Positions 2,458 to 3,793 of a stretch of DNA of 5,360 nucleotides are shown here, piece after piece. The notes below the pieces were generated by a model, which was given only the letters and a program-made list of their open reading frames with translations, was not told the DNA's origin and did not search any database. The position numbers and the translations under genes are program-made. The DNA comes from a virus (taxonomy: Duplodnaviria > Heunggongvirae > Uroviricota > Caudoviricetes). The DNA is taken from the IMG/VR virus record IMGVR_UViG_2654587571_000011. One strand, written 5' to 3'. Position 1 is the first letter of the stretch, and the number at the start of each line of letters is the position of its first letter.

Positions 2458-2481
2458 GTCCGCTTAGAGCGAGAAGCGGAC
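2458..2481. repeat. Perfect hairpin GTCCGCTT-agagcgag-AAGCGGAC (8-bp stem) in the convergent gap between int and the 309-aa gene; possible terminator for the minus-strand gene
   Basis: Inverted repeat read directly. On the minus strand the hairpin is followed by TGTTTGAAGCTTTTT (plus 2443-2457); on the plus strand it is followed by ATTAAAATC. A related copy of the same stem sequence occurs at 3729-3752. Confidence 0.35.
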
Positions 2482-2610
2482 ATTAAAATCTGCTTCTCCA
2501 AAAAATTTTCAGGGTCTTAGCGATATTTTCAGCTCAAACACTATTCACAATGCGGACTTGGGTTCTCTCATTTTCTATCGTACAGAACAACTAGTTTTAT
2601 GCTTCACAAG

Positions 2611-3540
2611 CTAATTCTCTTTTATTAATTTCAGGGAATTACAGAGATTGGCAATTTTAGATTTGCATTCGAGAATAGTTATTGCTTTCTTTATTTCTCT
2701 GCATTTATTTAATCTTGCATTGAATACTAACCTTTCAAAATTATTTATCAGCTTATTTTGAGGTTCTGAGCAGCGCAGCTTATATAGTTTAAACAACCCA
2801 GTTCTTTGATAGTCATATCCATACTTTGACAAAAAGGCCATCAGGATAAAATGGAAACAGTTAATTAAATGCCATTTATTGCAAGATTTGTCACTCATTA
2901 TGGTGGATATGTACTTGCAAACCTGTGTATAGTCTAATTCAGACTCTGATTTAGATTTGAATTCTGAATAAGTAATAACTCCTGTAGGTGTAATCATTTT
3001 TTCCACAATACTAATAAGGTCATCCTTGAAAAAATGGTCTACAGCATGCTCATTATCATAACCAGTCCCACTCAACATCGAAGCATCGCAAAATATATTT
3101 TGCATGGTTTTAATATACTTCACAAAATAAAGATCGTTCTTTTCTGAAAGTGTTACATCTAAATATATCAACTCTCTTTCGAACTTTATACACCAAGCAT
3201 AAAATGCTAAAAATCGATAACAAAAAGTTTGTAGGTAATATTTATCACCAATTGATTCATTATTTTTGAAATTATGCCATCCTTTAGTGCAATTTCCTGA
3301 AAAATTCCACAACCTATGATTCAATGACTCAGCTGAATCGAGTAAAGGCATTTTATATTTTGATATCGCCTCTTTGATTTTCTTCTTTTGTTCGTAGCTA
3401 TGTTCAACTTTGATTTTGTAAACAATGAAATATTTATTCCATAAAGGTGTGCATACACCTTTTATAAAAAATAATAAAACCGTAACTAATGCAGATACTA
3501 GTGCCGCCATAACAGCAGGAGCTGAAGTTATTTCAGACAT
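2611..3540 (-). CDS. Hypothetical membrane-anchored protein, 309 aa, strongly AT-rich gene
   Basis: Uninterrupted ORF with ATG at plus 3538-3540 and stop TAG at plus 2611-2613. Minus-strand RBS AAGG six nt before the ATG. N-terminus (SAPAVMAALVSALVTVLLFFIKG) is a clear hydrophobic helix; further hydrophobic stretches (FLAFYAWCI, HLINCFHFILMAFL). Rough hand counts on sample lines give about 27-37% GC versus about 42-58% in int. Cys/Lys/Asn-rich; no recognisable catalytic motif. Confidence 0.7.
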   Translation of the reverse strand: MSEITSAPAVMAALVSALVTVLLFFIKGVCTPLWNKYFIVYKIKVEHSYEQKKKIKEAISKYKMPLLDSAESLNHRLWNFSGNCTKGWHNFKNNESIGDKYYLQTFCYRFLAFYAWCIKFERELIYLDVTLSEKNDLYFVKYIKTMQNIFCDASMLSGTGYDNEHAVDHFFKDDLISIVEKMITPTGVITYSEFKSKSESELDYTQVCKYISTIMSDKSCNKWHLINCFHFILMAFLSKYGYDYQRTGLFKLYKLRCSEPQNKLINNFERLVFNARLNKCREIKKAITILECKSKIANLCNSLKLIKEN

Positions 3541-3728
3541 ATGGAACCTTATTGAATGTTTATTCAGATATCTATTTGTATGTAAGATATTAATATAAAA
3601 ACGCTCTTATCACAATAGAGTAAATAATTCCTCTCCTGCTTTTACAGCAAGTATCATCTGTAACTTAGGCTCAATTCAGTACATGACGATCCACTCCCTG
3701 AAAATTTGCATTATGAGTTGCTGTCAAC

Positions 3729-3793
3729 GTCCGCTTCTGGCACGGCGCGGACGAGCTAGCGTTGCTGAGGGCTCCTTGTGAGCGAGAAGTAGA
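3729..3793. repeat. Second copy of the GTCCGC...GCGGAC hairpin motif (3729-3752) plus a GAGCGAGAAGTAGAC segment (3779-3793) related to 2458-2481
   Basis: 3729-3752 is GTCCGC-ttctggcacggc-GCGGAC. GAGCGAGAAGTAGAC (3779-3793) matches GAGCGAGAAGCGGAC (2467-2481) at 13 of 15 positions. The two loci flank the AT-rich 309-aa gene in direct orientation. Confidence 0.45.

Follow-up and report, generated by a model that had tools for sequence, protein, structure and literature searches.

What are two related hairpin motifs doing on either side of an AT-rich membrane-protein gene, right next to a phage integrase? The question is raised by a 5,360-nucleotide stretch of tailed-phage DNA (Caudoviricetes; IMG/VR record IMGVR_UViG_2654587571_000011), which we refer to, at its full length, as the window. 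An earlier note, made from the letters alone, had proposed duplicated attachment or recombination sites, or a cassette boundary, around a gene of 309 amino acids (aa), and alternatively two copies of a terminator or of a repetitive extragenic palindromic (REP)-like element. The idea of a recombination-type cassette boundary proved essentially right: the motifs belong to a family of short sites of two types, A and B, which brackets AT-rich cargo in many mobile elements, and homology between related genomes breaks inside the first of them, at 2458-2481. The window is the intE-icd end of an Escherichia coli e14-like lambdoid prophage, integrated at icd. Strain PS1Thumoskin9 matches it at 100% identity (megablast) and shows the gene order IS3, an ECs1072-family gene, xisE, intE, the 309-aa gene, a HEPN/Toprim-associated gene, a small open reading frame (ORF) and icd, with intE as the final conserved backbone gene ahead of the cargo slot.

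The two site types have 7-bp inverted arms in common (GTCCGCT/AGCGGAC) and distinct 6-bp centres, GAGCGA in B and TGGCAC in A (Table 1). As the earlier note had described, three segments are present, all on one strand, and flank in direct orientation the AT-rich 309-aa ORF, whose GC content is ~0.28-0.33 against ~0.43-0.49 for intE; the coordinates held to within one base (3780-3794 instead of 3779-3793 for the last), and GAGCGAGAAGTAGAC at 3780-3794 equals GAGCGAGAAGCGGAC in 13 of 15 bases. The sites at 2458 and 3729 agree in the arms and differ in the centres, so they are no copies of a single motif, and the element at 3729-3794 is in fact a composite of one A-type and one B-type site. The latter, termed B', matches the arms in 3/7 and 5/7 bases and keeps the centre GAGCGA, and it is in register with the intact composites of L004, L249, L022, L054 and others (loci are cited here by their L numbers). 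The start-to-start distance from A (3729) to B' (3771) is 42 nt, a spacing that is the mode for composites, being found in 11 of 18 (16 of the 18 measure 42 or 40 nt). Hence, the layout of the window is B (2458), the 309-aa gene, A (3729) plus B' (3771), and the HEPN/Toprim gene, with a further A outside. An IS3 left end truncates the distal part of this second cassette, so that its closing A-type half-site, GTCCGCTCCTGGCAC, falls just beyond the window; it is found at L001 17527-17550, in a genome 100% identical to the window.

The pairing of these motifs is not random, and the finding is real and biologically meaningful: GTCCGC-N6-16-GCGGAC occurs twice in the window against 0.00 expected (200 shuffles), and GAGCGAGAAG twice against 0.01. 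Folding differs among the sites. The one at 2458-2481, which sits between convergent genes, folds stably as a hairpin, at -8.5 kcal/mol for DNA and with z = -4.1 on one strand and -4.5 on the other, that at 3729-3752 is weak (z = -0.8), and segment 3771-3794 gives no fold.

Comparison with related genomes places the left joint of backbone and cargo exactly within the B site. K-12-type e14 prophages, carrying lit, ymfE and ymfD, match the window only as far as 2482 (megablast), and P393-F10 and PSJ-22, which hold the same 309-aa and HEPN/Toprim genes in an unrelated island near hipA, match it from 2458 on. At nucleotide level the window and L249, with the backbone shared and the cargo different, are identical through GTCCGCTT.GAGCGAG and divergent after, while the window and L002, with the cargo shared and the left context different, are identical rightwards from GAGCGA. 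The left half of site 2458-2481 hence goes with the e14 backbone and its right half with the cargo, and the crossover region would be GAGCGA at 2467-2472. Evidence for the right joint is weaker, and consists of backbone-like cttaaatattaacgagc directly after the closing A in L001 and similar ctaaacattaacaagc at the same place in L249.

Six e14-like intE-icd slots were compared. The L249 slot holds a three-cassette array (B c1 A+B c2 A+B c3 A), with other cargo than the window, the first cassette being flanked as the P2 Z/fun cargo is; the K-12-type slot (L003) shows only a B-like site (18/21), its A-like candidate being doubtful (14/20). The earlier note had looked to relatives lacking the 309-aa gene for an empty site marked by a single motif, and none was found among the six. 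The int-proximal slot of e14-like prophages (L248-L251) is hypervariable, its contents ranging over lit/ymfE/ymfD, a DUF2357 protein with an 848-aa protein, a 1213-aa DNA-binding protein, IS481 with a 281-aa protein, and A/B cassette arrays.

A distant search with positions 3690-3830 returned partial copies on plasmids, one of which carries three, in three consecutive intergenic regions, and these copies defined the unit GTCCGCT-NN-TGGCAC-NN-AGCGGAC. The pattern GTCCGCTNNTGGCACNNNGCGGAC is present in at least 120 stretches of viral contigs and at least 120 of GTDB genomes, and the site counts that follow for these two collections rest on those stretches, among the matches listed. In an arms-only scan the two main types are A (TGGCAC), with 151 sites, and B (GAGCGA), with 90, nearly all co-oriented; the usual order is B...A, and arrays of the form B..A-B..A are also seen. 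In the viral contigs a B precedes an A in the same orientation at 71 of 142 A sites, and the B...A brackets enclose 55 different cargos, 565-5803 bp long (median 1466 bp). Their GC content is 0.376 versus 0.481 in the flanks, the cargo having the lower value in 52 of the 55, and the longest cargo ORF lies on the minus strand relative to the sites in 29 cases and on the plus strand in 26. Domains found include TIR, RelA_SpoT, Macro, GmrSD_N, DarT+HD, cyclase+AGS_C, HEPN/RES and a trypsin-like one, a cargo that is typical of defence hotspots. The sites are always in intergenic DNA.

The 66-nt A-linker-B composite is likewise frequent. It occurs in 1864 of 5426 complete E. coli genomes, at 2711 places, none of them annotated, with up to five places per genome and a median of one in those that have it, and in 582 PLSDB plasmids, mainly of Enterobacter, Klebsiella and Pantoea, 381 of which are conjugative. 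Among the matches listed for these genomes and plasmids, no annotated feature lies beneath the composite in 45 of 45 rows. Sampled E. coli places are arrays, always in islands, prophages or plasmids. Low-GC cargo stands inside a B...A bracket at the P2 Z/fun hotspot as well as in further e14-like prophages, on plasmids and in genomic islands, and the right flank met most often at A sites is the 3' end of G, the tail-fibre-assembly gene of P2. In P2 (L127) the order is FI, B (GTCTGCTTTGAGCGAGGAGCGGAC), Z/fun cargo, A (GTCTGCTCTTGGCACAGAGCGGAC) and G, with A 61-62 nt after G and B ~80 nt upstream of the pF activator site; neither site is annotated in the RefSeq P2 record. As a separate observation, in L114, ~41 nt downstream of an A site, the B-site centre is expanded to about five tandem GAGCGAA heptamers (GTCCGCGGTGAGCGAAGAGCGAAGAGCGAAGAGCGAAGAGCGAAGAGCAGAC), which suggests slippage at the core.

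To locate the joints inside the sites, the variable bases on each side of the core were compared with the flanks, over 90 distinct A-site and 62 distinct B-site combinations. In A sites the variable bases to the right of the core go with the right flank (mutual information 2.63 versus 1.52 for the null, p<0.0005) but not with the left one (p=0.24); those to the left of it go with the left flank (p=0.0015) but not with the right one (p=0.37); and the two sets are independent of each other (p=0.95). B sites behave in the same way, with p<0.0005 and p=0.0005 for the own flank and p=0.54 and p=0.70 for the opposite one. Individual cases can be followed by eye: all 13 combinations of one P2 backbone flank have GTCTGCTTT, next to many different right halves (eight listed), one cargo keeps AAAGCAGAC behind three different left contexts, and five left-flank clusters each join two to three right-flank clusters, the right variable bases differing between those in four of the five. 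Because each half-site follows its own flank, the joints lie inside the invariant 6-bp cores, and in an architecture of 7(+2)-6-(2+)7 the comparative junctions fall between site positions 9 and 16.

The stretch of identity at the joint is ~6-10 bp, too short for RecA or Red-type recombination. Annealing over the whole site is disfavoured as well, because both halves would then come from one parent, unlike the data. The inner stem positions do not covary and arm variants are uncompensated, a lack of covariation that argues against a hairpin selected for its structure, as RNA or single-stranded DNA, and favours a duplex site recognised by a protein. An extended hairpin had been considered when three L004 plasmid copies seemed compensatory; it lost weight when the 90 distinct combinations showed no covariation.

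With moderate confidence, we regard A and B as core-type recombination sites with common arms and two cores that do not cross-react, cassettes being exchanged between elements within the cores and the A-linker-B composite being the junction of neighbouring cassettes or of an excised circle. Each border is a 24-bp site, with 7-bp inverted arms around a 10-bp middle that contains the 6-bp core GAGCGA or TGGCAC. A cassette consists of B-cargo-A, and the A-18 nt-B composite links cassettes in tandem. The comparisons show that the sites recur as borders, at the points where unrelated backbones meet unrelated cargos, and that the joint lies in the core; what is inferred concerns the enzyme, the excised circle and the separate reactivity of the two cores. 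The two inverted arms would be bound and flank a 6-bp overlap, as in dif, lox and FRT, and a recombinase not encoded in the cassette would exchange strands inside the core. Having the same arms and different cores, A would recombine with A only and B with B only. Either two elements could trade cassettes through a double exchange, or a cassette could leave and enter as a circle with the A-linker-B junction, and the heterospecific ends would keep it from loss by recombination between its own two ends. On a broader scale, A and B may be the cis elements of an orphan integron-like or recombinase-mediated cassette exchange (RMCE)-like system, driven by a recombinase or host factor through heterospecific cores on common arms, that extends across the Enterobacterales (P2-like phages, lambdoid prophages, phage-plasmids, conjugative plasmids and islands) and lies behind the swapping of defence genes in hotspots; this extension we offer tentatively, as possible rather than probable.

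Several observations weigh against recombination within the cores. The B' site of the window is decayed, and the crossover position, being derived from comparative junctions, is a putative one. No recombinase was linked to the sites, nor is any obvious one common to P2-like phages, e14 and plasmids. The 2.9-kb module common to the window and the P393-F10 island ends inside the small ORF (~L001 17264), ~260 nt before the closing A site, so that its right junction was apparently not made at a site. Three of the six e14-like slots (L248, L250 and L251) lack any sites, divergence setting in straight behind the stop codon of intE, and members of the 309-aa family are found in hotspots without them too; hence, the e14 slot is also remodelled by other means. 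The latter observation partly bears out what the earlier note had named as a refutation, 309-aa genes without the motifs: homologues of 57-61% identity sit in the P2 tin/old and P4 hotspots with neither A nor B sites, so that the sites go with particular slots or cassettes rather than with the 309-aa gene. Finally, Hyphomicrobiales carry the same arms and TGGCAC core as a dense REP-like repeat in the intergenic spaces of ordinary genes, up to 16 sites in 8 kb. Active recombination sites are hard to square with this behaviour, which suggests another primary role or a palindrome-binding host factor.

That repeat speaks for the explanation by REP-like or insulator hairpins, according to which the sites serve primarily in transcription, mRNA stability or host-protein binding, and cargo is swapped incidentally through short shared sequence (microhomology, template switching or relaxed homologous recombination) by no dedicated system. 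Most GTDB matches, among those listed, are metagenome-assembled genomes of Hyphomicrobiales (L128-L247), in which the palindrome is a high-copy intergenic repeat among housekeeping genes, often after stop codons; the copies form ordered direct triplets ~45 nt apart, with centres TGGCAC, GGGGGT and TGACCC (e.g. L143, L159, L166, L173, L185), and frequently stand just after genes ending ...EVIE-stop and before ABC_sub_bind-like paralogues. No transposase or recombinase family is enriched in 692 kb of these loci. The intergenic position of all sites, the stable hairpin between convergent genes and the missing recombinase also fit such a role, and the REP-like alternative of the earlier note is sound to that extent. 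It does not carry over to E. coli, where the copies occur only at island, prophage or plasmid places and at a median of one composite. Nor is the terminator alternative, which had been suggested too, supported: no T-run follows either site (plus-strand tails ATTAAAATCT and GAGCTAGCGT, minus-strand tails TGTTTGAAGC and GTTGACAGCA), terminator and promoter scans of the window call neither, and the annotated, putative V-operon terminator of P2 is another hairpin ~300 nt away, so an intrinsic (rho-independent) terminator was rejected. The random orientation of the cargo means that the sites are not consistently 3' elements, and the uncompensated stems, the half-sites that follow their own flanks and the brief identity at the junctions are all at odds with structure-based or homology-based swapping. 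On balance, we consider the hairpin explanation unlikely, though second in rank, the REP-like behaviour leaving room for a structural or host-factor role.

Two co-oriented motifs that flank a gene of foreign composition beside an integrase could also be what insertion of the 309-aa gene by intE or a transposase would leave behind, as duplicated attachment sites or a target-site duplication. This we judge very improbable. The cores differ, so the sites are not duplicates; icd, the attachment site of e14-type integrases, lies ~0.4 kb past the cargo slot, and in L251 the opposite end of the prophage holds a fragment of an icd pseudogene; the cassette has no transposase; and in P2-like phages, whose integrase is a different one at another locus, this site pair brackets unrelated cargo. 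The duplicated attachment site of the earlier note is hence abandoned. As for chance similarity of GC-rich intergenic sequence, many 20-24-nt pairs of 70-80% identity do arise by chance in the window, but the shuffling counts, the recurrence in two collections and the number of E. coli genomes with the composite make it negligible.

Other readings of the sites were tried and discarded. A sigma-54 promoter at TGGCAC was rejected on inspection, there being no GC at the -12 spacing, and a tRNA-derived attachment site was rejected as the tRNA scan found none in the window. An Rfam search of the window gave nothing at the A/B sites, and searches of six related loci gave only sok, CyaR and DicF, none of them at sites. 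It should be noted that an alphaproteobacterial REP-like family has arms and one core in common with enterobacterial cassette borders.

Table 1. Features of the window, with positions, strand and supporting observations
Feature	Position	Strand	Observations
intE, lambda-type integrase	1267..2397	+	Pfam Arm-DNA-bind_1 + Phage_integrase; RefSeq: intE, xisE upstream, icd downstream
B-type site, GTCCGCT-TA-GAGCGA-GA-AGCGGAC (GTCCGCTTAGAGCGAGAAGCGGAC)	2458..2481	+	left border of cassette 1; both arms exact
Cargo 1, 309-aa protein, N-terminal membrane segment	2611..3540	-	no Pfam, NCBIfam or PADLOC match; GC ~0.30
A-type site, GTCCGCT-TC-TGGCAC-GG-CGCGGAC (GTCCGCTTCTGGCACGGCGCGGAC)	3729..3752	+	right border of cassette 1; 1 mismatch in right arm
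18-nt linker of composite junction, GAGCTAGCGTTGCTGAGG (usual form aGGTAACTGAGCTGAAG)	3753..3770	+	alignment; A-to-B spacing
Decayed B-type site (B'), GCTCCTT-GT-GAGCGA-GA-AGTAGAC	3771..3794	+	left border of cassette 2; centre intact
Cargo 2, 445-aa HEPN/Toprim-associated protein	3922..5259	+	Pfam HEPN_Toprim_N, E = 1.7e-48; RefSeq product name
GC-rich hairpin AGGCCGCGCATGCGGCCT, cassette's own terminator-like element	5262..5279		scan: terminator-like, minus strand
IS3 left end	5297..5360	+	64-nt perfect inverted repeat with 36-99; IS3 transposase annotated beside left end in L001

Concerning the cargo, a tblastn search against isolated phage genomes gave one weak match for one of the two proteins and none for the other. 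The 309-aa family is widespread in Gammaproteobacteria, and all its named members are hypothetical proteins. Some homologues do stand near sites: in Yersinia an A site lies upstream and a B site only past two more genes, and in another enterobacterial island a composite lies upstream. In the P2 tin/old and P4-like satellite hotspots (L255, L260-L262) the homologues are convergent with a ~316-aa HNH_2-domain protein, which suggests an uncharacterised two-gene defence system; the copy in the window has no HNH partner. The GC-rich hairpin directly 3' of the cargo 2 stop codon is not an A or B site.

At the edges of the window, 1-107 and 5297-5360 are IS3 left ends, inverted and facing inwards. 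The 100%-identical genome CP180607 has the left copy only, and the right copy breaks the small ORF, which is intact at L001 17188-17367. The 5.2-kb segment between the inverted copies could be composite-transposon-like, invertible, or a contig ending in repeats. Between the ECs1072-family gene and xisE, the stretch 661-884 is non-coding and GC-rich (0.55), with a sub-threshold resemblance to the Rfam small RNA STnc100 (31.8 bits, gathering score 47, E = 3e-4); RefSeq annotates this region as a frameshifted hypothetical pseudogene, and an 18-nt inverted repeat (94%; 882-899 / 953-970) lies just past it. The P393-F10 island (L002 339-5636) opens with a pair of overlapping genes for tyrosine integrases, together with a hypothetical gene of 788 aa, adjoining hipA, and resembles a multi-recombinase mobile element, unrelated to e14.

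Anti-phage genes turn over fast in the hotspots of phages and satellites; large surveys of recent date report this swapping but name no sites, and recent hotspot papers make no mention of hairpins, inverted repeats or motifs at hotspot borders. Literature searches by sequence string and keyword, whose scope did not include Nilsson 2004 (see below), yielded no description of the motif. If exchange within the cores is true, the ends of hotspot cargo could be drawn with base-pair precision, so that guilt by association would have cleaner units to work with, the 309-aa and HEPN/Toprim genes counting as two cassettes, and unannotated cargo slots would be findable by a DNA pattern, as with the composite in the E. 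coli genomes and plasmids counted above. A genetic screen would have a definite object in the recombinase, and the heterospecific cores would be nature's equivalent of engineered cassette exchange; were an orphan system at work, the REP-like copies of Hyphomicrobiales would point to a conserved protein recognising GTCCGCT...AGCGGAC.

Among known systems, REP elements and bacterial interspersed mosaic elements (BIMEs) are, like A and B, short GC-rich intergenic palindromes with shared stems and different loops, and the copy number in Hyphomicrobiales is very high, in ordered clusters. They are also known for IS1397-type insertion into REP loops and for rearrangements with junctions at REPs. However, the A/B sites of E. 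coli are confined to the cargo borders of mobile elements, and their sequence is unrelated to E. coli REP. The cassettes also recall morons, which Hendrix and colleagues defined by a promoter and a terminator: both are AT-rich, independently transcribed extra genes between conserved phage genes, and cargo 2 has its own terminator-like hairpin, but the moron definition lacks conserved flanking recombination-type sites. The term, with references to Juhala 2000 and Cumby 2012, is used in 10.1101/2024.10.15.618418.

A narrower likeness is to the sfx sites of the Rci shufflon, with core GTGCCAA and right arm TCCGGTACGTGG (PMC4176322). On the opposite strand the A core reads GTGCCA and often GTGCCAA, and the sfx core is where Rci exchanges strands, which is a lead only: the arms are unrelated (TCCGGTACGTGG versus nAGCGGAC), only one sfx arm is conserved, and shufflons invert rather than exchange. 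Membership in that family, with its core GTGCCAA and conserved right arm TCCGGTACNTGG, was rejected, since only the core resembles the A centre.

Integrons share with our locus the arrays of small, foreign, single-function cassettes separated by short imperfect palindromes, and the A-linker-B composite would equal the junction of an excised circle. Nevertheless, the A/B sites have no R''/L''...L'/R' boxes (RYYYAAC...GTTRRRY), IntI, attI or common promoter; gene orientation is random, there are two site types and not one, and inner covariation is absent. An integron cassette was rejected on these grounds, as attC boxes are lacking, the cargo is not co-oriented and the neighbouring integrase is lambda-type with an arm-binding domain.

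Closer in design are dif, loxP and FRT, and above all RMCE with heterospecific lox or FRT sites, which are alike in the inverted arms, the asymmetric 6-bp core, the two core types on identical arms and a crossover that would lie in the core. Judging from the comparative junctions, the A/B sites appear to have the architecture of tyrosine-recombinase core sites, that is, inverted arms around an asymmetric overlap of 6-8 bp. The arm sequences are unrelated to those of dif and lox, and the likeness concerns how the sites would work, not membership.

The closest relatives are the inverted repeats of the Z/fun region in P2-like coliphages, for which site-specific recombination was proposed by Nilsson, Karlsson and Haggard-Ljungquist (Mol Biol Evol 2004), as summarised in PMC8987985. 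They are of the same site family, with the same B/A arrangement around AT-rich cargo and the same proposal of exchange between phages and bacteria. The difference lies in the place: in P2 the slot is among the tail genes, whereas the window shows the int-proximal slot of a lambdoid e14-like prophage, with two cassettes and a composite. Hence, this type of border has been known since 2004 for P2, and the e14-like locus is a further case of it.

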